A stretch of DNA of 64,000 bases from Flavobacteriales bacterium (lineage in GTDB: Bacteria > Bacteroidota > Bacteroidia > Flavobacteriales_F > PHOS-HE28): contig JACJZG010000012.1 in assembly GCA_020635715.1 (NCBI GenBank), positions 24,680-88,679 on the forward strand, in the 5' to 3' direction. The first letter of the stretch is position 1. Each line of letters starts with the position of its first letter. Position numbers and translations under genes: made by a program. Shown piece by piece: positions 16,288 through 38,971 of this stretch. Below the pieces are notes generated by a model that was not told the DNA's origin, ran no database searches, and was given only the letters and a program-made list of their open reading frames with translations.

Positions 16288-17295
16288 TTAGAATGCACTG
16301 CTCGTGGACATGCGGCGTTGTCGCCCATTGTGGGTTCCGTAGTAGAGAATGGAGAATTCGAAAGCCCCGTTCTTTCGCGTGTAGTTCTGCAGCGATGACA
16401 TGTTGATGTCATAACTGAATCGGAATGCCGCGTTGTTGTGCTTCAGTCCGACTTGCGCGATGATCGCGTCCTTCACACGGTACGAGCAACCGACGACCGC
16501 GCTGTACGGTGTGCCCATGATGTTGACCTCGGCAAGCATCCCTGCGTTGATCATCTGATCCTTGCCCTGGAGCATGTACAACCCCATCGGGATGAGGTAC
16601 ATCCCCTCGTTGAACTCCACCCGCGCTCCTGCGTTCACGGAATAGCGGATGGGCAGATCGGTCTTGGCGGTACGCAAGATGGATTCATCCGGGGTGGTGA
16701 CGTGGAATAGCGCGAAGTTGCCGAATGGATTCACCCTCTTCCGCGCATCCGTACTCCTGTAAGCGACCCCTGCGGAGATGTCAGGCATGAAGCGTGCACC
16801 GCGCTGCAGGATCTCGCCTGAGGGTAGGTCGCTGTCGAAATACCCATTGTTATACTGATTATCCCAAAGCAACTGCTGGCTGTTCACCTTCTTGTAAAGG
16901 AGCCCGATGTGCGCGCCCACGGAAAGCGTGTGGCCTGCATTCTTGGTTGATACGTTGTATGCCCCGGACGTACCGAGTTGGAACGTGTTCACGATCCCCG
17001 CCTGGTTGAAATTCGTCATGTACAGGCCAGCTCCATAGCGGTTCTGAAGAGCGAGGTCATAGGCGAATCCCGTCGTAAGGAAACTGCTCTGCAGGCTGTT
17101 CCATTGACTGCGCACATTGCTGGTCATACGGAAATCCGCATTCTCGAACATGCCTGTGAGCGCCGGATTCAAGGTGTTCGGCGCGGTCTCGTATTGGGAC
17201 AGGTGCGCATCCTGAGCCAGGATCGTACTGCTCACGCAGCCCGTGATCAGCAGCGCGGAAAGAGCATTCAGGTTCTTCATGTTGCTCAGGTTCAC
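16288..17295 (-). CDS. PorP/SprF-family T9SS membrane protein (cognate partner of the upstream type B cargo)
   Basis: Signal peptide followed by QDAHLSQYETAPNTLNPALTGMF, the family-defining N-terminal motif. Beta-barrel-like composition and a C-terminal aromatic residue (SSAF). The first possible ATG at 17295 abuts the adhesin stop (17296-17298); an alternative ATG is at 17280. Confidence 0.8.
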   Translation of the reverse strand: MNLSNMKNLNALSALLITGCVSSTILAQDAHLSQYETAPNTLNPALTGMFENADFRMTSNVRSQWNSLQSSFLTTGFAYDLALQNRYGAGLYMTNFNQAGIVNTFQLGTSGAYNVSTKNAGHTLSVGAHIGLLYKKVNSQQLLWDNQYNNGYFDSDLPSGEILQRGARFMPDISAGVAYRSTDARKRVNPFGNFALFHVTTPDESILRTAKTDLPIRYSVNAGARVEFNEGMYLIPMGLYMLQGKDQMINAGMLAEVNIMGTPYSAVVGCSYRVKDAIIAQVGLKHNNAAFRFSYDINMSSLQNYTRKNGAFEFSILYYGTHNGRQRRMSTSSAF

Positions 17296-20200
17296 TTATC
17301 GGATGAGTGAGATCTTCCCGGAACGATCGTGCACCGTTCCGTCCTTCGTCGTGGCGACCACGGAGTACACGTACACTCCATTGATCTCCGGCTGTCCATC
17401 ATGGGTTCCGTCCCAGCCGAACGTGGGGTCCTCGGTCTCGAAGATCAATTCGCCCCAGCCGTTGAACACCCGTAGATGCATTGTTTCGAAAGGACCGCCC
17501 CGCACATAGAACACATCGTTCACACCATCGCCGTTCGGGCTGAAGGCATTGGGTAGTTTCGGTGGCAGAATGTCCTTCACCTCGACCTTGATCAGCAGGG
17601 AATCACGATCGGTGCAGCCGTTCGCGTTGGTCACGGTCTGAACGATGATGTACTGACCCGGGGTCTCATAGGCATGGACGGGTTCGGCAAGCAGGCTTCC
17701 GCCGCCATCCCCGAAGTCATAGTGCCAGTTCGTGGCGCCCACCGAGGTGTCCGTGAAAGCGATCTCCGTCTCGGTCAGCAGCTCGCCGCTGATGGTGAAG
17801 CCGGCGACCGGTGCATCGAGCACTTCGACCGTCCGGGTGATGCTGGCACTGCAGCCGTTCTGGGCGAACACGGTCAAGGTGACGGTGTACTCACCCGGCT
17901 CGGTGAAGCTCGTGCTCGCTTCAGGTCCATTGACCGGAACACCATTACCCAGGTCCCAGCTCCAACCGATGATGGCCGATCCCGAGGTGGTGCTGGCATC
18001 CATGAAGCTCGTTATGGAGCCTGCGCATGCATTGGTCACCCCGAAGGCGGGTTGCAGAGGGTTCACGAACGACAGCATCAGGGTATCGCTCACTGCGGCA
18101 CACACCCCGTTGCCGGTCGTGGTCAACACCATCCGCACGGTGCCCAGTTGTTCATCCGTGGCACCGGGCTGGTAGCTGGCATTCGCTGCCGTGTTGCTCG
18201 GCAGGAACACGCCTGCACCATTGGTGGACCACTGGATGCCACTGGCTCCCGTGAACGAACCGGATAGATCCACAGGCGCGCTCGCATCGCAGGTGCTCAG
18301 ATCCGAACCCGCATTCACCGTCGGAACAGCTTGCAGGGACACCCGCATGGTATCGGTATCCGCAGGACACCCCATGTTGCCCGTGGTGGTCAGGATGAAC
18401 CTCAGCTCGTTGAAGGCCATGTCTGTTGAGCTTGGCACATACGCGGCTCCCAGGGTCGTAGCATCGGGCAGGAAGGTCCCTGTACCGCTTGTGCTCCAAA
18501 CGCCGCCACTCACTCCAGTGATGCTACCTCCTAGTGCGATCGGATCCATGTCCGCACACACTGTCTGATCCGCCCCGGCGTTGGCGATCCGCGTCGGTCC
18601 GATGTCGATGAACACCGAGTCCGCCGCGTTGCCGCAGGTCCCCGTGCCGAAGGCGGTGAGCACGAGGTACACACCACCGGCGATGCTGTCGTTCGCGGTC
18701 GCGGTGTATACTGCGTTCAGTACATCAGCACTCGGTTGGAAGCTGCCCGAACCCATGGTGGTCCACTGCACGCTGCCTTGGTTCTGAGCCGTCCCGTTCA
18801 GTTGCACATCCTCCAGACCGTTGCACAGGAGCACGTCAGCTCCTGCGTTCACCGTCGGTGGCACATGGTAGCTCACCACAAGCGTATCCCGGCCTGCGGG
18901 GCAGCCCTGGTTGTTGGTGGTGCTCAGTACGAGGTTGATGTTCCCGATCGCGTAATCAGCCGCACCCGGGATGTAGGTCGCGTTGAGCGCGTTCGCGTTC
19001 GGCATGAAGGAGCCGGTTCCGCTGGTGGACCAGGTACCCGTGGTGGTGCCGGCCACCGCGCCGTTCAGGGCGATGTTCGGATCGGTGCTGCAGGCCACCA
19101 CGTCCGCTCCGGCCACGGCCGCAAGGCCACCACCGAAGCTGATCACGAGCTCATCGGATACCGCGCTGCATGGCGCCATACCGATGGTGGTCACTGTCAG
19201 GGTCACTGAGCCAGCAAGGCTATCGGCAGCGCTCGGCAAGTACAGTGTGGCAAGCGCGTTCGGGTCGAAGAAGGTTCCCGTACCCGACGTGGTCCAGGTG
19301 CCGCCTCCCGCGTTGGCCACATTGGCCGTGAGCTGAACAGGTGCGGCCGTGCAGGCGATGATGTCAGCACCCGCGTTGATGTTCGGCAGCGGGTTCACGG
19401 AGAGGAGCACGACATCGCTGGAGACGGCGCATGCTCCGCTCGTGATGGTTGTAAGGGTGAGCTGCACGCTGCCGGCCGTGATGTCGGCACCGCTCATCGT
19501 ATAGGTGGCGCCCGGGTCGGTGATGTTGCTGAAGGAGCCCGTGCCACTCGTGCTCCACGTGATGCCGCTGGATCCACCGCTGTAGTTGCCCGCCAGTTGC
19601 GCGATGGGTGCATTGGCGCACAGCACCTGATCAGCACCGGCATAGGCGTAGCTGCTGTTGCCGAAGGTGATCACCATGGCATCCTGCGTGCTCGGGCAGG
19701 TGCCAGTGTTGGTAGCGGTGAGCGTAAGCACCACGGAGCCGTTGGTCACGTCGGCGGCCGAGAAGAAGTACTGCGCATTGAGGGCGTCGGCACTCGGTTC
19801 GAAGGTGCCCGTGCCCGTGCTGGTCCATGTACCCGAGGGCGAGCCATTCTGGATGCTGCCCAGCAGGTTCGCGTGGTCGGAAAGCACGCACACGTTCTGG
19901 TCCGGACCCGCGTTCGTGATGATCCCATCCGTGAGGTAGATGGTCATCTGGTCGGTCACTGGGTTGCAATTCGCGTTGTCGAGCGAGCTCAGCGTGAAGG
20001 TGATCGAGCCGTTCGCGATATCCGCAGCGCTGGCCGTGTACGTGGTGTTCAGCGCGCCCGCATTGGCGATGGTACCCGTGCCGGTGGTGGTCCACTGGCC
20101 CACATTGGTGATGCCGCTGATCGCGCCGTTCAGGTTGAATTGCGTCACCGCGTTGCAGTAGGTCTGGTCCGGACCGGCATTCACGTAAGGTGCCGGTGTC

Positions 20201-23200
20201 AGCGTCAGCTGCATGGCATCGGTAGCGTTGTTACAGGATCCCGGCGCGCTGATGGTCAGTGTCAGATTGCCGATGGCCGTATCGATCGCGCTGGGGATGT
20301 AGGTCGGCGTGAGCACATTGGGGTTCGGGTAGAAGGAGCCGGTTCCCGAAGTGCTCCATTGCACTTGGCTGGCATCACCGCTCAGCTGTCCGTTCAATTG
20401 CGTCACCGCATTGTTCGCACAAGCCGTAACGTCCAGGCCCGCGTTCACCGTCCCTTCCGGTTGGATGGCGATGAAGAGCGTGTCGGCCCCAGGCGCGCAT
20501 ACACCCGTGTTCGTCGCGGTGAGGACCAGGTAGGCACCGCCCGCGAGCTGATCGTTGGCGCTGGCCTGGTACACGTTGCTGAGGGCGGTGTTCGCATTGG
20601 CGAAGCCGCCGCTGCCCAGGGTGCTCCAGGTACCACTGCTGCTGGCGCCGCTCACGGTTCCGTTGATCACCACATCCAGATCACCGAAGCAGGTGACTTG
20701 ATCGGCGCCCGCATTCACCACGGATTCCGGTGTGATCGTCAGCACCATCTGGTCCATCGCATTGTCGCAACTGTTCACGCTCCAGGTGAAGGTGAGCGTG
20801 CCTTGCGCCGCATCGCCAGGTGCGAGTTGGTACACCGCGTTGGCATCAGCAGCGCTCGGCAAGAAGCTGCCCGCGCCCGTGCTGGTCCATTGACCTTGGG
20901 TCGCGTTGCCGGTGATCGTGCCGCTCAGTTGGATCGAGCTGGTGCTCGCGCAGATCGTCTGATCCACGCCGGCGTTCGCGATCGCGTTCGGCAGGATGGT
21001 GATCGTCATTGCATCGCTGACCGCGGTGCAGAGACCGTTGTTACTGCTGCTCAGCGTGAGCTCAACCGATCCGTTCAGCGAATCGAGGCTGCTGGCGATG
21101 TAGGTCGCGTTCAGCGCCGTCGGGCTTGGGCTGAAGAGGCCCGTGCCGCTTGTGGTCCATTGACCTGTGGTCGCCCCGCCTTGCACGGTGCCGTTCAAGG
21201 GCACTTGCAATTGGTTCGAGCAAGTGGTCACATCCGCTCCGGCGTCCACCACCGGCGATGGCGTCACGGTGATCATCATCTGATCACTCACCGCCGTGCA
21301 GTTGCCATTGCCGGTCGTCGTCAGCGTGAGCTGCACGCTGCCGGATCCCAGTTCGAACGAAGAAGGCACGTATTGCGCGTTGAGCGTCTGGGCGTTCGGC
21401 GTGAAGGTGCCGAGGCCGCCGCTCCATTGCGCGCCAGTGGCCACGGTGACCGCGCCGTTCAGCGTCACCACCGCGTTGTTCATGCACATGTTCTGGTCCA
21501 CGCCTGCGTTCACGGTCGGGGCCGGGGTGAAGGTCACGACCACCGTATCGCGCACGGCGAGGCAGTTGCCATTGCCGGTGCTGGTGAGGTAGAGTGAGAG
21601 CGTTCCCGCGGCGAGTTCACCGGCGCTCGGCGTGTACACCGGGCTCAGCACGTTGGCGTTCGGTGCGAAGGATCCGCTGCCGCCCGTCCAGGTGCCACCG
21701 CTGGCGTTGGTGACGTTGCCGGTGAGCTGCACCGCGCTGTTGTTCGCGCAGATCTGCAGATCGCTGCCGGCATCCACGATGGGCGCACCGGTGAAGACGA
21801 TCGTCATCTGATCCGTGACGGCATTGCAATACGCCGTGCCTGTCGAGCTCAAGGTGAGCGTCACGCTGCCTGCGGCGATCTCGGCCGCCGTGGGCGCGTA
21901 TTGCGTGGCCAGCATGGTGTTGCTCGGGAAGAAGGTCCCTGCTCCACCGCTCCACGCACCGCCCGGCGCATTGCCCACGAAGCCGTTCAGCTGCACGTTG
22001 GAGTTGTTCGCGCAGATCTGCTGGTCCGGACCCGCGTTCACGACAGGAACAGGATCCACAAGCACGATCAGGCTGTCGCGCACGATGGCGCAGTTGCCAT
22101 TGCCCGTGCTGCTCAGCACAAGTGTGAACTGACCGGATGCGATCTCCGCTGCCGTTGGGAAGTAGGTCGCGTTCAGCGCAGCGTTGCCGGGTGTATAGGA
22201 TCCATTGCCGCCGGTCCAGATGCCGCCGGTGGCCACAGTGACCGCACCGCTCAGGCTCGCCTGCGCCGCGTTCGCGCACACATGTGCATCAGGACCCGCG
22301 TTCACCGTGGGTGCGGGCGTGAAGACCAGTTGCACCGAATCCTGGGTGGACACGCAGCCTCCGTTACCGGTGCTGGTGAGGAAGAGCCACACCTGTCCGC
22401 TCGCGATCTCGGCCGCGCTGGGCGTGTAGGCCGCGTTCAACGTGTTGCTGTTCGGGCTGAAGGCGCCGGAGACACCGCTCCAAACGCCACCCGTTGCGTT
22501 GGCCACCGAGCCATTGAGCTGGGCCACCGCGTTGTTCGCGCACAAGGTCTGCGGCGATCCCGCTTCCACGACCGGCGCGGCCGTGATGGTCAGCACCACC
22601 TGGGAGGCTACCGCGTTGCACAGGCCGTTGCCGGTGCTGGTCAACGTGATCGTGGCCGTACCAGCCGCGATCTCCGCGTTGCTCGGCGTATAGGTCGCGC
22701 TCAGGTTCGTGTTGCTCGGCGAGAAGGTGCCCGCGCCGCTCCAGATACCGCCCGTTGCGTTCTGCACGGAACCGGCCAGTTGCACCGCAGGGTTGTTCGC
22801 GCAGGAGGTCAGCGGCGTGCCTGCGTTCACGATCGGCGACGGGATGATGGTGATCACCACCTGGTCGCTTACCGGGTTGCAAGTACCGTTGCCAACGGTC
22901 GTCAGCGAGAGCGTCACAGTGCCTGCGGCGATCTCCGACGCGCTCGGCGTGTAGGTCGCGTTCAGCGTGCCGTTGTTCGGCGAATACGTGCCGTTGCCTC
23001 CGCTCCACAGCGCACCCGTAGCCACGGTGATCGCACCGTTCAGTTGCACCGAAGCGTTGTTCGCACAGGTGAAGAGGTCCGCACCGGCGTTCGCGGTGGG
23101 CGCCGGTGTGAAGGTGTAGGTCACGTCATCGCTCACCGCCGTGCAACCGTTGTTGCCCGTGGTGGTCAAGGTCAGCGTTACGCTACCAGCCGCCAGTTCA

Positions 23201-26200
23201 CCAGCGGAAGGCGTGTACAGCGCGTTGAGCGCGTTGGCGTTCGGGGTGAAGGTTCCGCCCGCTCCGGACCAGGTACCGCCGCTCGCGACGGTCACACTAC
23301 CGTTCAATTGGATGCCCGCGTTGTTCGCGCAGCGCACGCCGTCAGCACCGGCGTTCGCGGTGGGCGAAGCAGTGAAGGTGATGAGCACCTGATCCGATAC
23401 CGGCACGCAATTGCCATTGCCGATCGTCGTAAGGGTCAGGGTCAAGCTACCTGCGGCGACTTCCGCTGCGGTCGGCGTGTAGATCGCGTTCAGCGAAGCG
23501 ATGCTCGGCGAGAACGTTCCCGCACCACCACTCCATTGGCCACCACCCGCACCGCTCACGGAACCGCCGAGCTGCACGTTGGGGTTGTTGGAGCAGACCG
23601 CGATGTCATTGCCCGCATTGGCCACCGGCGATGCGATGATGGTGATGACCATCTGGTCGCTTACCGCATTGCAGAGGCCGTTGCCGGTGCTCGTCAACGT
23701 CAGCGTCACCGTGCCCAGGGCCAATTCCGCCGGGCTCGGCAGGTATGTCGCATTCAGCGTGTTCGCGTTCGGCGTAAAGCTGCCACTGCCACCGCTCCAC
23801 ACACCACCGGTCGCGATGGTCACAGAGCCGTTCAGGACGACCGTCGGATCGTTCGCGCACACGGTGCGGTCGATGCCGGCGTTCACCACGGGGCTCTGCG
23901 AGAAGAAGATCGTCATCTGATCGCTCACCGCCTGGCAGGTACCGTTGCCGGTGCTCGTCAGCGTGAGCGTCACGGAACCGTTGGCGAGTTCCGAGGTGCT
24001 CGGCGTGTAGGTCGCGTTCAGCGCATTGATGCTCGGTGAGAAGGTGCCCGTGCCGCCGCTCCAGATGCCGCCGCCCGCGTTGCTCACGGTACCGGCCATC
24101 TGCACTGTGGCATTGTTGGAACACACGGTCTGGTCCACTCCCGCGTTCACCACCGGCGAAGGCGCGATGGTGATCGTCATCTGGTCGCTCACCGCGTTGC
24201 ACAGACCGTTGCCGGTGCTGGTCAGCGTGAGCGTCACCGTACCTGCGGCCACTTCACCCAGCGTTGGCGTGTAGGTGGCATTCAGGTTCGTGTTGCTCGG
24301 GTTGAAGGTGCCGGAACCGCCGCTCCACACGCCGCCCGTGGCGTTGTTCACCACACCGGCCAATTGCGCGGTCGATTGGTTCGCGCAGGTGGTGATGTTC
24401 GCACCGGCGTTCGCGATCGGCGTAGGTGTGATGGTGATGGTGATCTGGTCGCTCTCCGGATTGCTGTTGCCGTTGCCCACCGTGGTGAGCGTCAGCGTCA
24501 CCGTGCCGGCCGCGATCTCAGAAGCGCTCGGTGTGTAGATGGCGTTCAGCGCACCGCTGTTCGGGTTGTACGTGCCCGTGCCACCGCTCCAGATACCCCC
24601 GGTGGCGATGGTCACCGCACCGTTCAGTTGTACGGTTACATTGTTCGCGCACACCGTCTGATCCGGACCTGCGTTCGCCGTCGGCGCAGCACCGAAGGTG
24701 ATCGTCATCTGGTCCGTTGAAGGCGAACACGCGCCATTTCCCGTGGTGATGAGCGTCAGCGTCACGCTGCCCGACGCGATCTCCGCAGGGGTCGGTGTGT
24801 ACACCGCGTTCATCGTGCTGTTGTTCGGGCTGTAGGTGCCCGCGCCGCCGGTCCATTGCGCACCGGTGCTGATGCTGAAGCTGCCCGCGAGCGTGGTGTT
24901 CGCGTTGTTGCTGCTCACCGTCTGATCCGGACCCGCGTTCGCGACCGGCGCCTGGGTGTAGGTGATGGTCACCGCATCGCTCACGGCGGCGCAGTTGCCG
25001 TTGCCGGTCGTCGTCGCGATCAGCGTTACGGAGCCGTTCACCACTTCGATGGGCGAGGGCGAATACGTGATGTTCTGCGCGGTGCTGCCCGGACTGTACG
25101 CACCGGTCCCCCCGGACCACTGCACACCGGTGGCCACCGTGATCACGGCGCCCAGCGTGGCGGTCGCGTTATTGCCGCAGACCGACTGGTCCACACCGGC
25201 GTTCACCGTCGGTGCGGGGGTGATCGTGTAGGTCACGTTGCTCGAGACCGCATTGCACTGGCCGTTGCCAGCAGAGGTCAGCGTGAGCGTCACCGTACCG
25301 GCCGCGATCTCCGCCGCGGTCGGCGTGTAGGTCGCGTTCAGGGTGATGTTGTTCGGGCTGAAGGAACCCGCACCACCGCTCCACACGCCACCGGCAGCAC
25401 CGGTCACGGCACCGTTCAGAGCGATCGCCGGAGCGTTCGCGCACACGCTTCCATTGGCGCCAGCGTTCACGATCGGCGCAGGCGTATAGGTGATGATCTT
25501 GGTGTCCGTGGCGGGCGTGCAGTTGCCGTTGCCCGTCGTGGTCAGTGTCAGCGTCACCTGGCCAGCAGCGAGGTCACCCGCGCCGGGGTTGTAGGTGGCG
25601 TTCAGCGTGTTCGCGTTCGGCGTGAAGGTGCCCGTACCGCCGCTCCACACACCGCCGGTTGCTACGATCACGCTTCCGCCAAGCGCTACTGCAGCATTGT
25701 TCGCGCAGCGCGTTACATCCGGACCGGCGTTCGCCGAAGGCGGATCGGTGAAGGTGAGCAGCACCTGATCGGTGGCGGCGTTGCACAGGCCGTTGCCCGT
25801 GGTGGTCAGTGTCAAGGTCACGCTGCCCGCTGCGATCTCCGCCGCGGTCGGCGTGTAGATCGCGCTCATGTTCGTCGTGCTCGGATCGAAGGTCCCCGCG
25901 CCGCCGCTCCAGATACCGCCCGTGGCGATGGAGAAGGCGCCGGACAATCCAGTGGCTGCGTTGTTCGCGCAGAGGACGCGGTCCGCGCCCGCATTGGCCG
26001 TCGGGGCAGGCGTGATGCTGTAAGTCACCTGGTCGCTCACGGCGTTGCAATTGCCGTTGCCCGTGGTGGTCAACGTCAGCGTTACAGTGCCAGCGGTACG
26101 TTCCGCCGCGCTCGGCGTGTACACTGCGTTCAGCGTCGTGTTGTTCGGGTTGAAGGTTCCCGTGCCGCCGCTCCAGGCAGCACCGGAAGCACCGGTCATC

Positions 26201-29070
26201 ACACCGGCCAGCGTGATGTTCGCGTTGTTCGCGCACACCGTGCCGTTCGCACCGGCATCCACCGTGGGCGCATCCGTGAAGGTGATCACCTTGGTGTCGC
26301 TCACGGCATTGCAGTTGCCGTTGCCCGTGGTGGTCAGCGTCAGCGTGAGGCTGCCGAGGGCGAGTTCCGATGGCGTAGGCGTGTAGGTCGCGTTCAGCGT
26401 GGTGTTGTTCGGCGTGAAGGAGCCCGCGCCGCCGCTCCAGATGCCGCCCGTGGCCACACCAACGGTACCGCTCAGCGCGACCGCCGCGTTGTTGCGGCAC
26501 ATCGATACATCGGCGCCCGCATCCACGGAAGGACTTGGCGTGAAAGAGAGCACCACGTTGTCGCTCACCGCCACGCAGTTGTTGTTGCCCGTGGTGGTCA
26601 GCGTCAGTGTCACCGAGCCGTTGGATATCTCCGCGGCGGTAGGCGTGTACGTAGCGTTCATCAAGGTGGCGCTCGGGCTGAAGGTTCCCGATCCACCGCT
26701 CCAAACGCCACCGGTCGCCACCGTGAACGAGCCGTTCATCGTGGCCACCGCGTTGTTGGCGCAGAGTGACTGGTCAGCACCCGCGTTGACCGTCGGCGCA
26801 GGCGTGATGCTGAAGGTCACGTTGTCGCTTACCGCGTTGCAATTTCCGTTGCCGGCGGAGGTCAGCGTGAGCGTCACGGTACCGGCGTTGCGCTCGGCAA
26901 CGGTCGGCTGATAGGTCGCGTTCAGCGTGGTATTGTTCGGCGAGAAAGTGCCCGCACCGCCGCTCCAGATCGCGCCGGTCGCGCCGCTCACTGATCCGTT
27001 CAAGGTGATGAGCGAGTTGTTCGCGCACACGGTGCCGTTCGCACCGGCGTCCACAACCGGAGCAGGTGTGAAGGTGATCGTGCGTGTGCTGGTCACGGCG
27101 TTGCAATTGCCATTGCCGGTCGTCGTCAGCGTGAGCGTCAACGTACCGGCTGCGAGTTCAGCTGGCGTCGGCGTGTACACCGCGTTCAAGGTGGTGTTGT
27201 TCGGCGTGAAGGATCCCAGGCCGCCGCTCCACACACCTCCTGTGGCACCGGATACGGAACCGGTCATCGTCACCTGCGGGTTATTCACGCAGATGGAGAT
27301 CGGCGCTCCAGCGTTCGCCACAGGCGCCGGCGTGAAAGCGATCGTGATGTTGTCGCTCACTGCCACGCAATTGTTGTTGCCCGTGGTGGTCAGCGTGAGC
27401 GTCACGGAGCCCGTCGCGATCTCGGCCGCGGTCGGCGTGTAGGTCGCGTTCAGGTTCGTGGTGCTCGGCGCGAAGGTGCCCGCACCGCCGCTCCAGATGC
27501 CGCCGGTGGCCACCGTGACGGAACCCGCCAGGGTCGCCACCGCATTGTTCGCGCAGAGGCTTTGATCCGGACCAGCGTTCACGGTCGGTGCCGGAGTGAT
27601 GCTGTAGGTCACTTGATCGCTCACCGCGTTGCAGTTGCCGTTGCCCACCGTGGTGAGCGTGAGTGTCACGGTACCGGCCGCGCGCTCCGCAGCGCTCGGT
27701 GTGTACACCGCGTTCAGCGTGGCGTTGTTCGGACTGTATGTGCCCGTACCGCCGCTCCAGACCGCGCCCGTTGCGCCGCTCTGCGAACCAGCCAGCGCGA
27801 TGGACGCGTTGTTCGCGCACACCGTGCCGTTAGGGCCAGCATCCACCGTGGGCGCAGGCGTGAAGGTGATCACGCGGCTGCTCTGCACCGGATTGCAGGT
27901 ACCGTTGCCGGTGCTCGTCAACGTGAGGGTCAAGGTGCCTCCGGCGATCTCAGCGGCCGTGGGTGTGTAGGTCGCGTTGAGCGTGCTGTTGTTCGGGTTA
28001 TAGGTGCCCGTTCCGCCGCTCCACACGCCGCCCGTCGCACCGCTCACGCTGCCGTTCAGGCTCACTTGCGCATTGTTCGCGCAGAGCGAGATCGGCGCGC
28101 CGGCGTTCACCACCGGTGCAGCTGTGAAGTTGATCGTCATCTGATCGGCGACGGCGGTGCAGTTGCCGTTGCCGGTCGTGGTCAGCGTCAGCGTGACAGA
28201 ACCGTTCGCGATCTCCGCAGCGCTTGCCGTGTAGATCGCGCCCATGTTCGTGGTGCTCGGATCAAAGGTTCCCGCACCGCCACTCCAAACCCCGCCCGTC
28301 GCGACCGTGAACGAACCGTTCAGTGCAACCGCAGGATTGTTCGCGCAACGGGTCGCATCGGCACCCGCATTCACCGTCGGTGAAGGCGTGATGGTGAAGG
28401 TCACCGCATCGCTCACGGCGTTGCAATTGCCGTTGCCCACGGTCGTCAGCGTCAGTGTCACGGTACCGGCCGCGCGCTCGGCAGCGGTCGGCGTGTACAC
28501 CGCGTTCATCGTGGCGTTGTTCGGGTTGTAGGTGCCCGCGCCACCGCTCCAGATCGCGCCCGTGGCACCGGTGAAGGCTCCGTTCAGGCTGATGTTCGCA
28601 TTGTTCTCGCATACACTCGCATCAGCTCCCGCGTTCGCGGTAGGCGCGGGCGTGAACGTGATCACGCGGCTGCTGGAGACCGGGTTGCAATTGCCGTTGC
28701 CCGTGCTGGTCAGCACCAGCGTAACGGTGCCCGCGGCCAGGTCGGCAGCGCTCGGCGTGTAGGTTGCATTGAGCGTGGTGTTGTTCGGGGAAAAGGTGCC
28801 GGAACTGGCGGTCCAGGCGCCGCCGGTAGCACCATCACACTGCTCAAGCTCACCTGCGCATTGTTGGCACAGAGCGATATCGGCGCGCTTGCGTTCACTG
28901 AAGGCGCATCGGGCGACGCGATCACCATCTGGTCCGTCGTTGCGTTGCAGGTCTTGCTGCTGGTCGTGGTCAACGCCACGATGCTGCGGCGATTCCGCTG
29001 CGCTCGGCGTGTACACCGCGCCCATGTTGGTGGTGCTCTGGACCAAAGGTGCCTGCACCCCTGCCCACAC
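17296..29070 (-). CDS. Giant T9SS-secreted repeat adhesin (SprB-class), the in-frame 3' 11.5 kb. The true reading frame is continuous only up to about 28,834.
   Basis: Single 3,924-codon ORF containing 40 tandem 88-aa modules (consensus ...P-x-P-x-[VA]-[ND]-A-G-x-D-x-x-x-C-x-N-N...A-T-G-G-x-W-S-G-G-x-G-T-F-x-P...L-N-A-x-Y-T-P...T-L-T-L-T-T-T-G-N-G-x-C...), then 2 PKD-like domains and a type B sorting domain. The listed Met at 29070 is in a wrong-frame extension and has no signal peptide. Confidence 0.85.
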   Translation of the reverse strand: MWAGVQAPLVQSTTNMGAVYTPSAAESPQHRGVDHDQQQDLQRNDGPDGDRVARCAFSERKRADIALCQQCAGELEQCDGATGGAWTASSGTFSPNNTTLNATYTPSAADLAAGTVTLVLTSTGNGNCNPVSSSRVITFTPAPTANAGADASVCENNANISLNGAFTGATGAIWSGGAGTYNPNNATMNAVYTPTAAERAAGTVTLTLTTVGNGNCNAVSDAVTFTITPSPTVNAGADATRCANNPAVALNGSFTVATGGVWSGGAGTFDPSTTNMGAIYTASAAEIANGSVTLTLTTTGNGNCTAVADQMTINFTAAPVVNAGAPISLCANNAQVSLNGSVSGATGGVWSGGTGTYNPNNSTLNATYTPTAAEIAGGTLTLTLTSTGNGTCNPVQSSRVITFTPAPTVDAGPNGTVCANNASIALAGSQSGATGAVWSGGTGTYSPNNATLNAVYTPSAAERAAGTVTLTLTTVGNGNCNAVSDQVTYSITPAPTVNAGPDQSLCANNAVATLAGSVTVATGGIWSGGAGTFAPSTTNLNATYTPTAAEIATGSVTLTLTTTGNNNCVAVSDNITIAFTPAPVANAGAPISICVNNPQVTMTGSVSGATGGVWSGGLGSFTPNNTTLNAVYTPTPAELAAGTLTLTLTTTGNGNCNAVTSTRTITFTPAPVVDAGANGTVCANNSLITLNGSVSGATGAIWSGGAGTFSPNNTTLNATYQPTVAERNAGTVTLTLTSAGNGNCNAVSDNVTFSITPAPTVNAGADQSLCANNAVATMNGSFTVATGGVWSGGSGTFSPSATLMNATYTPTAAEISNGSVTLTLTTTGNNNCVAVSDNVVLSFTPSPSVDAGADVSMCRNNAAVALSGTVGVATGGIWSGGAGSFTPNNTTLNATYTPTPSELALGSLTLTLTTTGNGNCNAVSDTKVITFTDAPTVDAGANGTVCANNANITLAGVMTGASGAAWSGGTGTFNPNNTTLNAVYTPSAAERTAGTVTLTLTTTGNGNCNAVSDQVTYSITPAPTANAGADRVLCANNAATGLSGAFSIATGGIWSGGAGTFDPSTTNMSAIYTPTAAEIAAGSVTLTLTTTGNGLCNAATDQVLLTFTDPPSANAGPDVTRCANNAAVALGGSVIVATGGVWSGGTGTFTPNANTLNATYNPGAGDLAAGQVTLTLTTTGNGNCTPATDTKIITYTPAPIVNAGANGSVCANAPAIALNGAVTGAAGGVWSGGAGSFSPNNITLNATYTPTAAEIAAGTVTLTLTSAGNGQCNAVSSNVTYTITPAPTVNAGVDQSVCGNNATATLGAVITVATGVQWSGGTGAYSPGSTAQNITYSPSPIEVVNGSVTLIATTTGNGNCAAVSDAVTITYTQAPVANAGPDQTVSSNNANTTLAGSFSISTGAQWTGGAGTYSPNNSTMNAVYTPTPAEIASGSVTLTLITTGNGACSPSTDQMTITFGAAPTANAGPDQTVCANNVTVQLNGAVTIATGGIWSGGTGTYNPNSGALNAIYTPSASEIAAGTVTLTLTTVGNGNSNPESDQITITITPTPIANAGANITTCANQSTAQLAGVVNNATGGVWSGGSGTFNPSNTNLNATYTPTLGEVAAGTVTLTLTSTGNGLCNAVSDQMTITIAPSPVVNAGVDQTVCSNNATVQMAGTVSNAGGGIWSGGTGTFSPSINALNATYTPSTSELANGSVTLTLTSTGNGTCQAVSDQMTIFFSQSPVVNAGIDRTVCANDPTVVLNGSVTIATGGVWSGGSGSFTPNANTLNATYLPSPAELALGTVTLTLTSTGNGLCNAVSDQMVITIIASPVANAGNDIAVCSNNPNVQLGGSVSGAGGGQWSGGAGTFSPSIASLNAIYTPTAAEVAAGSLTLTLTTIGNGNCVPVSDQVLITFTASPTANAGADGVRCANNAGIQLNGSVTVASGGTWSGAGGTFTPNANALNALYTPSAGELAAGSVTLTLTTTGNNGCTAVSDDVTYTFTPAPTANAGADLFTCANNASVQLNGAITVATGALWSGGNGTYSPNNGTLNATYTPSASEIAAGTVTLSLTTVGNGTCNPVSDQVVITIIPSPIVNAGTPLTSCANNPAVQLAGSVQNATGGIWSGAGTFSPSNTNLSATYTPSNAEIAAGTATITLTSTGNGLCNAVASQVVLTITAAPVVEAGSPQTLCANNAVAQLNGSVANATGGVWSGVSGAFSPNSNTLNAAYTPSAAEIASGQVWLFLTSTGNGGCVSTQDSVQLVFTPAPTVNAGPDAHVCANAAQASLSGAVTVATGGIWTGGNGSYTPGNAALNATYFPTAAEIASGQFTLVLSSTGNGNCAIVRDSLIVLVDPVPVVNAGPDQQICANNSNVQLNGFVGNAPGGAWSGGAGTFFPSNTMLATQYAPTAAEIAAGSVTLTLSSTGTAYCNAVTDQMTIVFTGAPIVDAGSDLQICANNSAVQLTGNVTNASGGTWTGGSGSFAPNANVLSPVYTPSAGELAAGTLSLYLTSTGNGNCLAVRDTVVVTFTPAPTVNAGVDQNMCMNNAVVTLNGAVTVATGAQWSGGLGTFTPNAQTLNAQYVPSSFELGSGSVQLTLTTTGNGNCTAVSDQMMITVTPSPVVDAGADVTTCSNQLQVPLNGTVQGGATTGQWTTSGTGLFSPSPTALNATYIASSLDSLNGSVELTLSSSNNGLCTAVSDAMTITILPNAIANAGVDQTICASTSSIQLSGTITGNATQGQWTSTGAGSFLPSAADANAVYQLAPGDAAQGTLTFTWSVNSCDNAMDQMVLTITPESVVNAGADQVTCFGDLDVVINGTVSGASSSGTWSTLGSGGFANANTALSNVYQASANDQLAGGAYLVLTATNTGVCAPGADTLFIAIQPEGTVNAGLDVTACANNAVTQLNGQLSGDASQVQWSTSGTGSFYPNPNVLTPTYIPSAIDTAIGNLTLTISAPGSCNNATDAMQLTLTPAPYVNAGPDQTYCNAVTQFNLNGAISGITNVGQWTTTGTGTIANAGALNTTYTASAADIANGSITFTLSSLDNANCNPVTDQMTIYLTDGIITNAGPDQNVCVLSDHANLLGSIQNGSPSGTWTSTGTGTFEPSADALNAQYFFSAADVTNGSVVLTLTATNTGTCPSTQDAMVITFGNSSYAYAGADQVLCANAPIAQLAGNYSGGSSGITWSTSGTGSFSNITDPGATYTMSGADITAGSVQLTLTTITSGACAVSSDVVLLSVNPLPNINAGADIIACTAAPVQLTANVANAGGGTWTTSGTGTFFDPNALATLYLPSAADSLAGSVTLTVTTIGMAPCSAVSDELVISFGGGLAAVAGADVVACSTDPNIALNGAVAGTTTGTWSTSGTGSFMPNANALNATYIPGAADYAIGNINLVLSTTNNQGCPAGRDTLVVSYHVPPTVNAGADVLLCNGLEDVQLNGTAQNQGSVQWTTMGSGSFQPSADVLNAVYTATANDSIAGGVYLVLTAFGTGTCGNAADSVFIDIGPTRIANAGADQTVCADMDPIALGGSITGVSGGVWSTSGTGTFLPDATTLGAAYVPSSTDMAFNELRFILTTTGNMGCPADTDTMRVSLQAVPTVNAGSDLSTCDASAPVDLSGSFTGASGIQWSTNGAGVFLPSNTAANASYQPGATDEQLGTVRMVLTTTGNGVCAAVSDTLMLSFVNPLQPAFGVTNACAGSITSFMDASTTSGSAIIGWSWDLGNGVPVNGPEASTSFTEPGEYTVTLTVFAQNGCSASITRTVEVLDAPVAGFTISGELLTETEIAFTDTSVGATNWHYDFGDGGGSLLAEPVHAYETPGQYIIVQTVTNANGCTDRDSLLIKVEVKDILPPKLPNAFSPNGDGVNDVFYVRGGPFETMHLRVFNGWGELIFETEDPTFGWDGTHDGQPEINGVYVYSVVATTKDGTVHDRSGKISLIR
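17299..17556 (-). other. T9SS type B C-terminal sorting domain (gliding-motility-associated CTD, TIGR04131-like)
   Basis: LPNAFSPNGDGVNDVFYVRGGPFETMHLRVFNGWGELIFETEDPTFGWDGTHDGQPEINGVYVYSVVATTKDGTVHDRSGKISLIR* matches the PNxFxPNGDGxND...WDG...G.Y.Y...R pattern. Confidence 0.8.
17557..18066 (-). other. Two PKD-like domains
   Basis: F-x-D-x-S...W-x-[WF]-[GD]-[DL]-G...H-x-[YF]...G-x-Y-x-V-x-L-x-V...G-C patterns (WSWDLGNG...GEYTVTLTVFAQNGC; WHYDFGDG...GQYIIVQTVTNANGC). Confidence 0.7.
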
Positions 29071-32000
29071 CCCGCCGGTAGCAATGTAGAAGGGAACCGT
29101 TCAGTGCAACAGCCGCGTTGTTCGCGCGGTGACCGTGCGGTCGAGTCCGCGTTGGGCCGTCGGAGCCGGCGCGATCGTGAAGGCTCACGTTGTCGCTCAC
29201 GGCGTTGCAGTTGCTGCTGCCTACGGTCGTGGAGGGGAGTGAGCGTCATCAAAGCGCAGTACGTTCGGCGGCGCTGGCGGCACACCGTGCCTGGCGTCGT
29301 GTTGTTCGGTTGTAGGTGCCCTGCGCCACCGCTCCGTGATCACCCTGGTCGATACCGTGAAGGAGCTGTTCAGTGTGATGTCTGCGCGGTTCGCGCACAC
29401 ACTTCGTCGCGTTTGCACCAGCATCCACTGCCGGTGCTGCGTGAAGGCGATCACCGGCTGTCGGAAATGGCGCGCTGCAGCTGCTACTGCCGGTCGGCTG
29501 GCGGTCAGTGGTCAGCGTACCCGCAGCCAGTTCAGCGGGGTCGGCGGTAGAAGGTTGCGTTGATGTCGTGCGTTGTTCGGCGTGAAGGATCCCGCACCAC
29601 TGCTCCAGATGCCGCCCGGCGACCGTCACGCTTCCGCCCAGGCCACGCCTGCGTTATTGCAGCAGAGTGTCAGGTCCGGACCAGCGTTGGCCGTCGGACC
29701 GGGGTGAAGTTCAGCTGTACCTCGACCGGTCACAGTGATAAGGCGGTGCCGTTGCCGGTCGTGGTCAGTGTAAGCGTCACCAGGTTGCCTTCGCGCATCC
29801 TTTCGGCCGCCGTCGGTGTGTAGGTCGCGTTGAGGTTCGTGGCGCCTGGCGCGAAAGTGCCTGCTCCACCGCTCCAGATGCCGCCTGTCGCGATCGTCAC
29901 GCTGCCACCCATAGGGGAGGCGACAGGGTTGTTGCAAAGGATTGGTCGGCGCCCGCGTTGGCTGTCGTGGACAGGTGTTATCGCGTAGGTTACGTTATCG
30001 CTCATCATGTTGCAGTTAAGCGTTGCCGGCGGAGGTCAGCGCTGCATCACCGTTCCAGCAGTTCAGCGGCGGTGGGTGTATAGGTCGCGTCTGGCGCGGT
30101 GTTGTTCGGGAAGAGCAGGTTCCCGCCCCACTGCTCCAGGATGCCGCCAGGCGCCGGTCACGGGATCCGTTCAAACCGACCGTTGCGTTGTTCGTGCAAA
30201 TCGAACTGTTCGCACCCGCGCTCACGATCGGCGCAGGCGTGAAGCGACCACCCTTGTTACCACGACTGGGTTGCAAGTACCCGTTACCGGTACTGGTCAA
30301 GGTGAGGGTGAGCGCGCCTGCGGCCATTTCCGATGCAGTGGGTGTGTAGGGTGGCGGTGAGCGCGGTGCTGCTCGGGTTGGCTGCGCCGTGCCGCTCCAG
30401 ATGCCACCGGTGGCCCCGGTCACAGAACTACTCAAGCTCACCTGCGCATTGTTGGCGCAGAGTGAACAGGCGCGCCTGCGTTCACCACAGGAGCTGGCGT
30501 GAAGCCGATCACCATCCGGATCCGGTGACCGCCGTGCAGGTACCATTTCCGGTCGTCGCTCGCGTAAGCGGTCACAGGAGCCGCTCGATATCTCACCAGC
30601 GGTCGGCGTACCGCACCCAGCGTTGGTGGTGCTCTGATCGAAAGAGCCTGCCGCTGCTCCAGATACCACCAGTGGCAACCGTGAACGAAACCGTTCAGGT
30701 GACCACCGCAAGAAATTGCGCAGGTGACCGTGCGATCGTTGCTCGTACTGGGCTGGGCGTCGGAGTGCCGCCGGCGCGACCGTGATGCGGACGTTGTCGT
30801 CACGGCGCTGTAGCTGCTGCTGCCCACCAGGTGAAGGCAGAGCGTCACGGCGCCTGCCGTGCGCCTGCTAGCCGCGCTTCGGGTGTGTACACCCCGCGCG
30901 ATGTGGTGAATATTGTTCGGGCCAGGTGCCCGTCTGCCGCTCCATGTCGCACCGGAAGCACGGCGCATCGAGCCCGCCAGCGTGATGGAAGCGTTGTTCG
31001 CGCAAACCGTCGCGTTCGCTCCCGCATCCACCGTTGGTGCAGGTGTACGGCGATCACCTTGCTGCTGGATACCGCATTGCAGTTCCTGTTGCCCGTAGAG
31101 GTCAAGGTGAGCGTCACCGTTCCCGCGGCTGCATTTCCGGGTTGTGCGGCGTGTAGGTGGCGTTCAGGGTCGCACTGGGTTGAAGGCCCGTGCCACTCGC
31201 TCCAGGCACCGCCCGTGGCGCCGGTCACACTGCCGCCTTTGCTGACTCTGCGCATTGTTCGCGCATACCGATAAACAGCGGCACCCGTGCTCACGACGGG
31301 CGCAGGCGTGAAGTTCAATTGCATCGCTGTCCCGTCACCGCGATGCAAACTGCCGTTGCCGGTGTCGCCAGCGTAAGCGTGACGAAACCGCTTGAGACTC
31401 CCCCGGGCGTAGGCGTGTATTGAGCACCCATGTTGGTCGTCGCCTGGGTCGAAGGAGTTTCGCACCGCTGCTCCAAATTCACCGGTCGCCACGGTGAACG
31501 ATCCGTTCATCGGCTACCGCGTTGTTCGCGCAGAGTGTCTGGTCCATACCCGGCGTTCGCCGTCGAGCTGCCGCGATCGTGTACGTCATTGCTGTCGCTC
31601 ACGGCGCTGTGCAGGTGCGTTGCCTACGGTGGCGTGACAGCACGGTGCCAGCGGTACGTTCCGCTGCGCTCGGCGTACACTCCGCATTCAGTGGTGTTGC
31701 CCGCTGGTGGTAAATTTCCGGGAAGTTCTGCTCCATACCGCGCCAGCTGCGCTGCTCTGCGTACCTGCCAGCGTGATGTCCGTATCACCGCGCACACCGA
31801 CCTGCTCGCACCGGCATCCACATCGGTGCCGGGTGATAATCACCTTTGTCGTTTCGTCACCGGCAGGCAGCGCCGCTATTGCCCGTACTGCTCTGGCGTC
31901 AACGTCAAGGTGCTGTAGCAGCGACCCTGCAGCTGTCGGCGGTAACGCGTTCAGCGTCGTTGTTCGACTGTAGAAAAGCCCGCACCGCCGCTCCAGGCAC

Positions 32001-32610
32001 CACCGGTCGCGCCGGTCACCGTGCCGTTGAGGCTCACCAGCGCGTTGTTCGCACAGAGCGAAACAGCCGCACCGGCATTCACCACGGGTGCTGCCGTGAA
32101 GCTGATGAGCACCTGGTCGTTCACTGCGGTGCAATTGCCATTGCCCGTGGTGGTCATCGTCAGCGTTACCGAACCACTGGAGATCTCCGCGGCCGTCGGC
32201 GTGTATTGCGCCGACATGTTGGTCGCTCGGGTCGAAGGATCCCGCACCACCGCTCCACACACCGCCCGTGGCCACGGTGAACGAACCGTTCAGATGCACC
32301 ACCGCGTTGTTCGCGCAGCGCGTCTGGTCCGCTCCCGCATTCGCGGTCGGCGCAGGCGTGAAGGACACGAGCATGCTGTCGGCCACCGCACTGCACACAC
32401 CGTTGCCGGTAGAGGTCAATTTGATCCACACCGAACCCGCCGTCAGGTCAGCGGCGCTGGGTGTGTAGGTCGCGTTGAGGTTGCTGTTGCCAGGCAGGAA
32501 GGTTCCCGTGCCGCCCGTCCATACACCACCGACCGCGTTCAGCACGCTGCCCGCGAGCTGCACCACATTGTTGTTGCGGCACACGCTCTGATCCGGTCCC
32601 GCGTTCGGTA
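18067..32610 (-). repeat. Tandem array of 264-nt (88-aa) coding modules, with a 792-nt three-module higher-order period in the 5' half
   Basis: The plus-strand anchor TTGCAnTTGCCGTTGCC (reverse complement of the GNGNC codons) sits at 25253, 26045, 26837, 27629 and 28421 (steps of exactly 792 nt) and at 28685 (+264). The 40 intact modules were counted by their [ND]AG...C starts. About 13 further degraded modules extend up to about 32.6 kb. Confidence 0.85.
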
Positions 32611-34244
32611 TCGGCTGCGGGCTGGAAGGTCACCACCATCTCATCATCCTCTGGCGTACGGCCCCTGTCGAGGTCAGCGTCAGCGTGACTGTTCCATCGC
32701 GAGATCACCGGATGCTCAAGGGATAGGTGGCGTTCAACGAAGTAGCGCTTGGCGAGAACAACGTGCCGCTTCCGCTCGTCGTCCAGATGCCCGTTGTACC
32801 CCGCTGGAAACGCTCCCGTCAACAACACGCTGTCCCCGGCACATCGCGTCTGGTCCGCACCCGCGCTCACATCGATCCTTCCGGAGAACTCGGAGAAGAA
32901 GCCGTAGCGGCAACCCGAAGTGGCACCGCCGTTGATGATCGCCAGCGAGAACACATCGCTCGTGTTGCTCACGATGAAGGCCTGGTTCACTGGCACCTCG
33001 GTGGTGTTGTACTGATGCGCGGCCACCATCGCCGCCGGTGCCCGGTACCGTCACGAATGCCGAACCCGGTATCGTTGCTGTACCGGGTCCCGTCACCACG
33101 AAATCGTTCTGCGATCCGTTCCGAACGAGGAGATTCAGGTAGAAGGCCTCGCTGGTACTTCGCGTGAAGCTGAGCTGCGTGCTACCCGCACAATTCAATG
33201 GCGGCAGGATCGCCATGCCCTGCTCGCAACCGAAGCCGGTGACATGGATCGCGTATAGCGGCTTGGAGCCGCTCACGTAGGTCGCGTTGTTCCCACCGCT
33301 CGGCAGGTAGTCCATGTCGTGGCGGTAGTACTGGCCGGCGAAGAGCGTGGCCACCGGCGTGGTGTTGCCATCGATGTAGACCTGCGTATTGTTCTGCACA
33401 GCCATCACGAAGAGCGACTCGTCGCCGGTGGTGTTGAGCGCGCCCTTCACGGCCACGTAATCGGTGCCGAGGATGTTCACCGGCACGATCTGGTCCAGCA
33501 TCAGGTCATAGCAGCCGCCCGATGGGTTGTGGTTCGAGTCATCCTTGATCGACACCGCAACAGGCTTGTTCGAAAGCACGACAGCTCCCGAAGGGTGCGT
33601 CGCCGGGTCGGTCTGGTTGGTGCCGGTCCACGCGCAGGAATAGGTCTGGCCCCGGTTCAAGGTCACCGTGAAGGGCGTAAGCGCGGGATGACCATCCACC
33701 GGCAGGGGCGAATAGATCATCACCAGCGTCCCGTTCTCGGTGGCTACGATATCGAAGGAGGCGTAGGCCTTGTTCGGCGCGGAATAACCGTGGTTGTAAA
33801 ATGGCGCGTGCTTGTGCAGCGGGATATAGAACTCGGTACCCAGGCCATTGGCACCTTTCAGCGCTGCGATGTCGGGGTTGTTCGTGAAGCTCGGCTCATA
33901 GTAGCACGATGTCTGGAGGTGCTCTGGATGTACAAGCCGGTGTTAAGGACCGCATCCGTTGACGCGTCTCCAACTTCGAATTTTCAAGGAGGTCAGGGTC
34001 GTACTGCTGCGCCGCTGTGTTGGCCAGGTTCAGCACGACGGCTGCTCTGCTGAAGCCTGGGTTACAGGTTGCGAAATGGTCACGACCGCAGGCAGGCCCG
34101 TGGAGGTGACGTTGATGTGTATCGGCTGGTCGCCAAAGTGGGACGACGACCTCGGGAGGTGCCAGCCAGAAATTGGTACTGGTTTGGGCATGGGTCAGCC
34201 CCTGAAGAGCAGCCTGCCACTGGTGGAGGAAGTGCCTGTTTCAT
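28835..34244 (-). pseudogene. Frame-disrupted 5' third of the giant adhesin gene (signal peptide, ~550-aa unique N-terminal domain, ~13 modules)
   Basis: At least 15 collinear minus-strand ORF fragments carry module sequence or N-terminal-domain sequence (for example 32734..33723 YYEPSFTNNPDIAALKGANGLGTEFYIPLHK...). The putative start MKQALP... is at 34244, followed across frame hops by STNFWLAPPEV / SSSHFGDQPIHINVTSTGLPAVVTISQP. The first disruption is at about 28,834 (one base missing in AGC AGT GTG A-T GGT GCT ACC). Confidence 0.7.
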
Positions 34245-36773: not shown

Positions 36774-38026
36774 ATGGCCAGCCGACCCTCGGGCGCATCA
36801 GGATGCCCGCCATCTGGAACATCTGTTGGCAGGCTGAGCAACATGCTCTTCTCCGACATCACGGTGTACGACATCAACGGCAGGGCATCATTTCTTCACG
36901 TCCACAGGTGTTCACGAACGGACTGCCGGCCCCTACATGGACCTGCTGGCCTTCGTGCGCCTGGTACCGAGGGCGCGGGCGACTTCGCATGAGGAATCCA
37001 TCGGCACGGCACTATACCAGAACGCCTACATGCCCCTGCGCGATCGGTCCGGTCAGGTGCTTGGCCACCTCTCGCTACCTGCGTTCGCTGATCAACGCCA
37101 GCAGGAACAGGAGCGCTCGGGTGTGCTCATCGCCGTGGTCAACCTTTTCGTGCTGCTCTTCGCCCTCAGCGTTCTCGTGGCGCTCTTCATCAGCAACTGG
37201 ACCACCCGACCGCTCGACCTCTTGAAGCGATCGCTCGCCAGCGTGGAATTGAAGGGCACCGACCGCAAGCTCCGCTACCGCGGGCGCGATGAAGTGGGTC
37301 AGCTGGTGGAGGTGTACAACCGCAAGGTGGAGGAATTGCGGGTGAGCGCAGAGAAGCTCGCGCAAAGCGAGCGGGAAAGCGCGTGGAAGGAGATGGCCCG
37401 GCAGGTGGCGCACGAGATCAAGAATCCCCTCACGCCGATGAAGCTGTCCATCCAGCACTTCCAGCAGACCCAGACCTGGCTGCAGCGGGCGCGCGGGAAC
37501 GCCCGGAATTGCCGCAGCAACAACCGAGTTTTACCCAACGGCCAGAGTTCAGCTTATTTCCGCGCAGATGCCGCCAGTATTGTTCCCCACGACCATCGAC
37601 CTCGCCGAAGTGGCGCGGACATCCGTGCAGCTCTTCGGGCATGCGCCCGGTTGCTCCGTTAAGCTCACGAGCCATGGCGAACTGCTGGTGCATGCCGATC
37701 GCGAGCACCTGCTGCGCACCTTCAACAACCTCATCAAGAACGCACAACAGGCCATCCCCGATGGGCGGCAGGGTGTGGTGGAGGTGATCCTACGGGCGGA
37801 AGGAGGCGAGGCCATCGCCGAAGTGCGCGACAATGGTGCGGGCATCCCGGCCGATACCGCCGACCATGTCTTCGTTCCGAAGTTCACCACCAAGAGCAGC
37901 GGCATGGGCCTGGGCCTCGCCTACAGGAAACGTATGGTGGAGAATGCGGGCGGGCGGGTCTGGTTCAATTAATGACAGAGGGGAGCGGCACCAGCTTCTT
38001 TGTGGCTCATGCCCTTGCAGAAGTAG
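36774..38026 (+). pseudogene. Sensor histidine kinase (extracellular Cache-like domain, TM, HAMP, HisKA, HATPase_c) with several frameshifts. The 5' limit is uncertain and probably lies upstream near 36.2 kb.
   Basis: Readable pieces sit in three frames. These are LSNMLFSDITVYDINGR / IISSRPQVFTNGL / YMDLLAFVRL...LPAFADQRQQEQERSGVLIAVVNLFVLLFAL (TM), then HAMP, then the H-box WKEMARQVAHEIKNPLTPMKLSIQHFQQT. After a frame hop come EFYPTARVQLISAQMPPVLFPTTIDLAEV...NLIKNAQQAI (N box)...DNGAGIP (G1)...GMGLGLA (G2)...GGRVWFN. Two more hops then lead to EGSGTSFFV..LPLQK*. Confidence 0.7.
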
Positions 38027-38962: not shown

Positions 38963-38971
38963 TGTACTGCA

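Follow-up and report, generated by a model that had tools for sequence, protein, structure and literature searches.

A predicted giant T9SS fibre protein and its adjacent PorP/SprF partner in an uncultured Flavobacteriales genome, with a 5' third probably broken by assembly noise

[quoted passage not shown] The evidence as a whole makes it likely that this gene specifies a giant T9SS fibre anchored by the product of the PorP/SprF-family gene directly downstream, that the fibre serves as a static adhesin, and that the break in the 5' third of the gene is an artefact. Apart from its great size the pair is an unremarkable member of a class already known, and its biological value is modest, as a well-resolved case of the rule "one type B cargo, one PorP/SprF carrier".

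Architecture of the adhesin gene and its partner

Analysis of open reading frames (ORFs) revealed a minus-strand frame at 17296..29100 that spans 3,934 codons from stop to stop, closes with the stop codon at 17296-17298 and has its longest start at a GTG (29070), which would give 3,924 amino acids (aa). Its last 86 residues (17299..17556, minus strand) form a type B T9SS C-terminal sorting domain (CTD) that matches TIGR04131 at 44.9 bits (curated cut-off 35; residues 515-600 of the final 600) and at 49 bits in a whole-genome profile scan, and also matches PF13585 (CHU_C) at 58.7 bits. Two PKD domains precede it (17557..18063, minus strand; PF18911 at 81.3 bits in two stretches, and PF00801), and ahead of these stand 40 intact tandem 88-aa immunoglobulin-like (Ig-like) modules (18064..28638, minus strand). 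A first-pass annotation of this DNA had proposed the sorting domain, the PKD pair and the 40 modules, and the profiles bear it out on all three, as hmmsearch with a profile of the module found exactly 40 full-length copies (frame residues 155-3679) with one partial module in front. The first 16 modules of the array (28639..32864, minus strand) are broken into many frames by dense insertions and deletions (indels) of 1-2 nt, and module-like fragments, spread over all three frames of the minus strand, run on collinearly as far as ~32.8 kb; the partial module (28639-28836) is the last of these sixteen and still lies inside the long open frame.

That the fragments and the open frame are one gene is seen in a conspecific genome, GCA_041391865.1, in which a 267-kb contig found via the exact PorP/SprF protein aligns to window 6292-27280, some 21 kb, at 97.98% identity and with 6 gaps. 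The protein encoded there (P0051) is 5,647 aa long, starts MKQALLLVLG..., differs from the clean frame of the window at 38 of 3,794 positions (99% identical), and is collinear with every window fragment back to the ATG at 34244, with 16 intact modules where those of the window are disrupted. For the 5' third, the comparison with the conspecific genome is one of protein-level collinearity with P0051, to which we added the DNA of the closest relative (L074) and of a 2,041-bp contig from the same bin (C53). Read from its N-terminus, P0051 consists of a Sec signal peptide, a PF17517 domain of ~440 aa, 56 modules of 88 aa, the two PKD domains and the type B CTD. Three relatives also carry the gene in full, each time as a single ORF followed by a PorP/SprF gene; one product has 5,666 aa and 56 modules, another 5,389 aa and 53 modules, and the third exceeds 6,399 aa. 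The window fragments are collinear with intact orthologues of 5,389-6,701 aa. The first-pass annotation had traced the fragments to the ATG at 34244 and put the gene at about 5,650 codons, and both estimates hold; its count of about 13 degraded modules rises to 16 in the comparison with P0051, and its unique N-terminal domain of ~550 aa shrinks to a 20-aa signal peptide and ~440 further residues, module 1 beginning at residue 461.

The ATG at 34244 is the true start of the adhesin gene, as orthologues and the conspecific protein begin MKQALLLVLGLLFTGLTHA, followed by QTGTEFW, at the homologous place. The start codon and Sec signal peptide (34185..34244, minus strand), placed by alignment to L074, are intact in L074, C53 and P0051, all three of which carry MKQALLLVLGLLFTGLTHA followed by QTG, and an intact N-terminus with a signal peptide is present at 76 of 79 related loci. 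The same alignment shows that the window copy loses its reading frame at about codon 6 after this ATG. Farther downstream, window 23025-28500 aligns to another relative (L009) without a gap over 5.5 kb, at 92-98% identity per 500-bp bin and about 95.6% overall, and 86% of the 242 differences fall at third codon positions, a pattern that speaks for strong purifying selection where the gene is clean.

Behind the signal peptide lies an N-terminal, all-β domain of ~440 aa (32865..34184, minus strand) that is clean at 33.0-33.8 kb and partly garbled in the rest, and that the first-pass annotation had been unable to name. It belongs to PF17517 (IgGFc_binding), which matches at 123.2 bits (gathering cut-off 25.6; E 1.7e-35) in window frame 32737-33942 and at 119.3 bits in a further orthologue (L086). 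Structure prediction, which that annotation had proposed for this domain and for the module, returned an all-β AlphaFold2 model of the L074 domain at a predicted local distance difference test score (pLDDT) of 85.9; a search of this domain against PDB folds gave no match better than E 1e-3 or a template modelling score of 0.16, and its profile found nothing at E below 0.7 among PDB sequences, full-length GhpA (introduced below) included. Scanning species genomes with this domain yielded 79 loci, mostly from uncultured Flavobacteriales and many in metagenome-assembled genomes (MAGs) from activated sludge.

The module, too, had gone without a family name, and here the first-pass annotation stands in so far as no curated model covers it: it has no match in NCBIfam, and in Pfam only a spurious one to RNase_PH_C with no passing stretch. 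It does have a recognisable relative, however. The AlphaFold2 model of a module pair (90 aligned pairs) has a pLDDT of 96.4 and folds as two β-sandwich Ig-like domains, for which the top PDB match in Foldseek is the base of GhpA (9fly_A; E 2.6e-8, 25% identity), with cadherins and SraP next, and the profile of the module pair finds GhpA as its sole match among PDB sequences (E 1.5e-13, best stretches at residues 4,730-5,640). By profile and predicted fold alike, the module is thus an Ig-like β-sandwich homologous to the repeats of GhpA. It stands for a domain family that is large and still uncurated, with 13,373 representative protein clusters matched at E ≤ 1e-3 and 3,255 at E ≤ 1e-30, and whose sole solved relative is GhpA.

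Within the array, each module keeps two conserved cysteines, and the N-proximal ~30 modules (window ~20000-32600) are organised in a higher-order repeat of three modules (264 aa, 792 nt), with module identity at 0.71-0.73 for lags 3, 6 and 9 versus ~0.60 for other lags. Because orthologous modules of different relatives are 95-97% identical and neighbouring modules share only ~65% of their DNA, the array is not being homogenised in concert, and its length and order appear, from these comparisons, to be under constraint.

The gene directly downstream encodes a PorP/SprF outer-membrane β-barrel of 330 aa (16288..17280, minus strand), which matches TIGR03519 at 153.3 bits (cut-off 90.55; profile positions 8-290 of 292) and PF11751 at 120 bits, as the first-pass annotation had expected. 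That annotation had given 17295 as the first ATG and 17280 as an alternative, of which only the second is right: the in-frame codon at 17295 is GTG, and public gene calls on 9 independent contigs start an identical 330-aa product at the ATG at 17280, 15 nt past the adhesin stop. The protein ends in ...RQRRMSTSSAF (full tail ...GTHNGRQRRMSTSSAF), and its last 45 residues hold no cysteine. A cargo gene followed by a PorP gene is the rule in this genome, where 12 of 15 PorP/SprF matches follow a type B CTD match, the others being two beside gldK-like and gldJ-like genes and one that is truncated inside a noise tract; the arrangement recurs at about a dozen loci and its order is kept in all four relatives examined, in keeping with the earlier proposal of a cargo and adaptor pair. 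The core of the secretion system is present in the same genome, where SprA occurs twice and scores 2,541 bits, GldM reaches 341 and 313 bits, and there are matches to GldJ/GldK-like genes. All three points on which the first-pass annotation had staked its reading, namely the sorting-domain model, the PorP/SprF models and the gene to which the 5' fragments belong, were checked and came out as it had proposed.

Parts of this were already on record, since orthologues carry public names and the partner is annotated as "PorP/SprF family". The conspecific protein is deposited as a 5,647-aa "PKD domain-containing protein" (GCA_041391865.1) and the 5,389-aa orthologue as a [quoted passage not shown] (MBK6341613.1); both copies are intact and share the family, the architecture and the PorP/SprF neighbour of the window pair, whereas the window copy appears in public protein sets only as the truncated 3,924-aa frame. 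What we add is the link to GhpA, the name of the tip domain, the negative tests for SprB/SprF and the reading of the broken 5' third as an artefact.

Static fibre, grappling hook or gliding adhesin

In the function that we propose, Sec would export the adhesin to the periplasm, and the type B CTD would route it to the SprA translocon, for which SprA, GldM/PorM and GldJ/GldK-like genes are at hand in the genome. The β-barrel encoded 15 nt downstream would then take the CTD and keep the protein on the outer membrane, as type B cargo is known to bind its PorP-like protein in the SprB-SprF and PG1035-PorP pairs (PMC9143113). The module array may form a fibre whose length, extrapolated from the scale of GhpA, would be about 200 nm or greater, and the PF17517 domain at its far end would be the binding tip if the N-terminus is distal as it is in GhpA. 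Such a static adhesin could attach its cell to another cell, a floc, a particle or prey.

The nearest system that we compared is GhpA/GhpB of Aureispira sp. CCB-QB1 (PDB 9fly, 9flp; Lien et al., "Mechanism of bacterial predation via ixotrophy"), in which GhpA has 52 repeats and a length of 240 nm and the ghpB (PorP) gene adjoins it (bioRxiv 10.1101/2024.01.29.577165). GhpA and the window adhesin are alike in that each starts with a signal peptide and a distal module at the N-terminus, continues with ~50 Ig-like repeats whose cysteines are conserved, and ends in a T9SS CTD, with a PorP gene directly downstream. This raises the possibility that the window gene encodes a grappling hook of the GhpA type, a rigid and multimeric (heptameric) T9SS fibre that catches cells with a different tip, and the near-identical architecture (52 versus 56 repeats, 5,898 versus 5,647 aa; bioRxiv 10.1101/2024.01.29.577165), together with GhpA being both the only solved structure matched by the module profile and the top fold match, argues for it. 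The two differ at the tip, however, where GhpA carries a 1,400-aa hook module (residues 26-1,402) and the adhesin the 440-aa PF17517 domain, whose profile matches no PDB sequence, that of GhpA included. Unlike GhpA, the adhesin has two PKD domains before its CTD and no PorE/GhpC homologue adjacent to it, the good match is limited to the C-proximal repeats of GhpA, and the module family is so large that sharing it says little about function. The host of GhpA is a filamentous Saprospiraceae predator, that of the adhesin an uncultured, high-GC Flavobacteriales, for whose fibre a heptamer and the capture of prey would be conjecture. On balance we regard a hook of this type as unlikely. A bolder form of the idea, to which we likewise give only a slim chance, is that the gene founds a widespread GhpA-like hook lineage in uncultured wastewater and freshwater Flavobacteriales, with ~56 modules, each conserved according to its position, as a rigid, possibly multimeric stalk of fixed length and a PF17517 tip, a domain without a solved structure, that catches cells or particles; if true, capture devices in the style of ixotrophy would reach far outside Saprospiraceae.

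A second comparison is with SprB/SprF of Flavobacterium johnsoniae, in which SprF binds and anchors SprB (PMC9143113). If the window pair were a gliding adhesin of this kind, the fibre would be dragged along a helical gliding track, and in favour of this are its similar size (SprB has 6,497 aa) as a repetitive fibre of several thousand residues, its type B CTD, its Ig-like repeats, the PorP/SprF-family carrier gene immediately downstream, the presence of GldJ-, GldK- and GldM-like genes in the genome, and the public naming of orthologues after gliding motility. Against this, the SprB repeat PF13573 has 98 matches in the genome and none on this contig (C4) or in this gene; the repeats mark other cargo/PorP loci (on contigs C23, C5, C13 and C2). 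The partner differs from SprF in the same direction, as SprF requires an invariant Cys-x-Cys tail, disulfide-linked to the GldK track, for coupling to gliding (PMC12635249), and this motif, invariant in close homologues and needed for movement along the track (PMC12635249), was not found in the cysteine-free C-terminal tail of the partner. Nor does the window pair have sprC- or sprD-like genes upstream or otherwise adjacent, its neighbours being a kinase gene and a major facilitator superfamily (MFS) transporter gene. We therefore consider a gliding role quite improbable, and, since the cargo lacks SprB repeats and the partner tail lacks cysteine, a static fibre adhesin, judged from sequence and by analogy, is more likely than a gliding adhesin.

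PG1035 of Porphyromonas gingivalis, with PorP and PorE, offers a third comparison, in that a type B CTD protein is held at the surface by a PorP-family β-barrel and not by linkage to anionic lipopolysaccharide (A-LPS). PG1035 is small, though, and its binding partner is the secretion machine's core PorP, whereas the window partner is one of ~15 paralogues and distinct from the one next to gldK.

Assembly noise in the 5' third

The disrupted modules lie in a patchy tract of apparent assembly noise (28800..39300, without strand) that is dense at ~28.8-32.0 and ~33.9-36.9 kb and runs out in smaller patches to ~39.3 kb. Codon-periodicity coherence in the two dense parts is 0.004-0.04, against a window median of 0.09, and is normal elsewhere. 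Compared with L009, identity falls to 77-87% from ~28.7 kb upward, at a sharp boundary, and the 500-bp bins at 28.9-32.0 and 33.5-34.2 kb mostly contain 10-30 gaps, 8-28 of them not multiples of three, versus only 1-8 in the bins at 32.0-33.5 kb. Within the disrupted modules, gaps that are not multiples of three number 12-28 per 500 bp over most of the stretch and 1-7 in its cleaner part at 32.0-32.9 kb. Compared with L074, the window is a mosaic in which patches of ~99% identity alternate with indel-bearing patches, and the 233 indel events (173 of them of 1 nt; 115 insertions and 118 deletions) are set in otherwise identical sequence. Overall, about 145 frame-breaking indels fall in 5.5 kb of the gene versus none in its adjoining 11.8 kb, and the tract ignores gene boundaries, breaking the neighbouring histidine-kinase gene as well and continuing into the DNA past it.

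Other copies of the same region are intact, C53 and L074 over the start and N-terminal domain and P0051 at full length. C53 is a clean duplicate of window 32658-34700, to which it aligns at 90.9% identity and with 55 gap openings, while its identity to L074 is 99.6%. The signal peptide, the tip domain and the first module are all intact in it, and it is either from a second close strain in the bin or an unmerged short-read version of the locus.

These comparisons make it very probable that the broken 5' third is an assembly artefact and not decay, with long-read errors that stayed uncorrected, in an assembly either hybrid or poorly polished, as its most likely cause. Natural decay would not leave ~145 indels in 5.5 kb beside a clean 11.8 kb under purifying selection, nor, at ~90% identity, about one indel for every two mismatches. 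The degradation of the modules that the first-pass annotation had noted would accordingly belong not to the gene but to this ~10-kb tract of the assembly, and noise in the kinase gene accounts for the apparent lack of ORFs at 34.3-37 kb. That the gene is a genuine pseudogene, with a 5' third and a kinase gene that have truly decayed and a remnant of 3,924 codons without a signal peptide, agrees with the frameshifts that the deposited sequence does hold and is nonetheless very improbable, because uniform neutral decay cannot give such a contrast within one gene, the indel density (~1 per 20-40 nt at ~88-90% base identity) exceeds natural indel-to-substitution ratios by a wide margin, strong purifying selection acts on the rest of the gene, the disruptions are not common to independent assemblies, the conspecific genome and C53 being intact, and the disruption tract does not respect gene boundaries.

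Several points weigh against the combined reading of a giant anchored fibre, a static adhesin and an artefactual break. The reading infers how the protein is secreted and anchored, how long the fibre is, its oligomeric state and its ligand, and the missing Cys-x-Cys argues against track coupling by analogy with the SprF of F. johnsoniae only. The case for an artefact comes from comparing this assembly with others and not from its raw data; L074 and C53 represent a strain that is slightly different, and the ~12% difference seen in some patches free of indels means that real divergence makes up part of the mismatch load. The transition/transversion ratio was 1.3-1.6 everywhere and did not separate noise from divergence.

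Three further explanations were tried and rejected. Repeat-collapse misassembly as the cause of the frameshifts does not fit modules that share only ~65-68% of their DNA, nor noise that also covers non-repetitive DNA. Silent cassettes or phase variation do not fit degraded modules whose fragments are collinear, one to one, with intact modules of the conspecific genome. RNA genes do not fill the ORF-poor 34.3-37 kb, as Rfam and ARAGORN searches found only a tRNA-Cys at 55.5 kb.

For users of databases, the practical point outweighs the biological one: the ~10-kb noise tract yields a spurious "protein" of 3,924 aa that lacks a signal peptide, spurious pseudogenes and a region that falsely looks "ORF-free", and frames are broken at other repeat-rich adhesin loci of this genome as well. 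The genome is a MAG, 79% complete with 4% contamination and with redundant contigs, and across it we found 26 low-coherence tracts, one of which is the rRNA operon and at least three further ones of which sit at other type B cargo/PorP loci with broken frames.

Neighbouring genes and related loci

Divergent from the adhesin gene is a gene for a sensor histidine kinase of ~1,268 aa with Cache, HAMP, HisKA and HATPase domains by Pfam (34300..38040, plus strand), which is fragmented by noise and without a long ORF in the window and which is intact in L074 (3377..7183) and L009 (5808..9623). A large Cache/HAMP kinase is kept in this divergent upstream position in several relatives, and the kinase is a candidate regulator of the adhesin gene. 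On the other side, the partner gene is followed by the MFS transporter gene and then by an ATP synthase operon on the other strand, with no PorE-like gene after it.

The C-terminal tails of the 15 PorP/SprF paralogues fall into classes, with about six that end in ...SPRYF and five that have one or two cysteines in ends resembling ...CP(x)F. The window partner, which ends in ...STSSAF, has serine where other paralogues have cysteine, and none of the 15 carries the Cys-x-Cys of F. johnsoniae SprF. A paralogue with two cysteines adjoins the gldJ-like gene.

Along the comparison with L074, nearly or fully indel-free patches at window 32250-33000 and 37000-37500 differ by 10-16% amid otherwise ~99% identity, which suggests that recombination between strains living together has left real mosaics in addition to the noise. 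Low periodicity likewise marks C13:27001-36000, C2:122101-124500 and C2:131701-133500, which are type B cargo/PorP-SprF loci with broken frames; within these tracts, one PorP gene contains 4 TGA codons in frame, and over about 9 kb the longest ORF is no more than ~313 aa. The cargo/PorP loci on C2 and C13 look like duplicates, as their PorP tails are identical. Several small contigs duplicate larger ones at 82-100% identity, and two full-length SprA genes with near-equal scores (C18:5106-12200 and C47:7480-14577) lie on contigs that align at only 87% identity, which suggests that two related populations were binned together.

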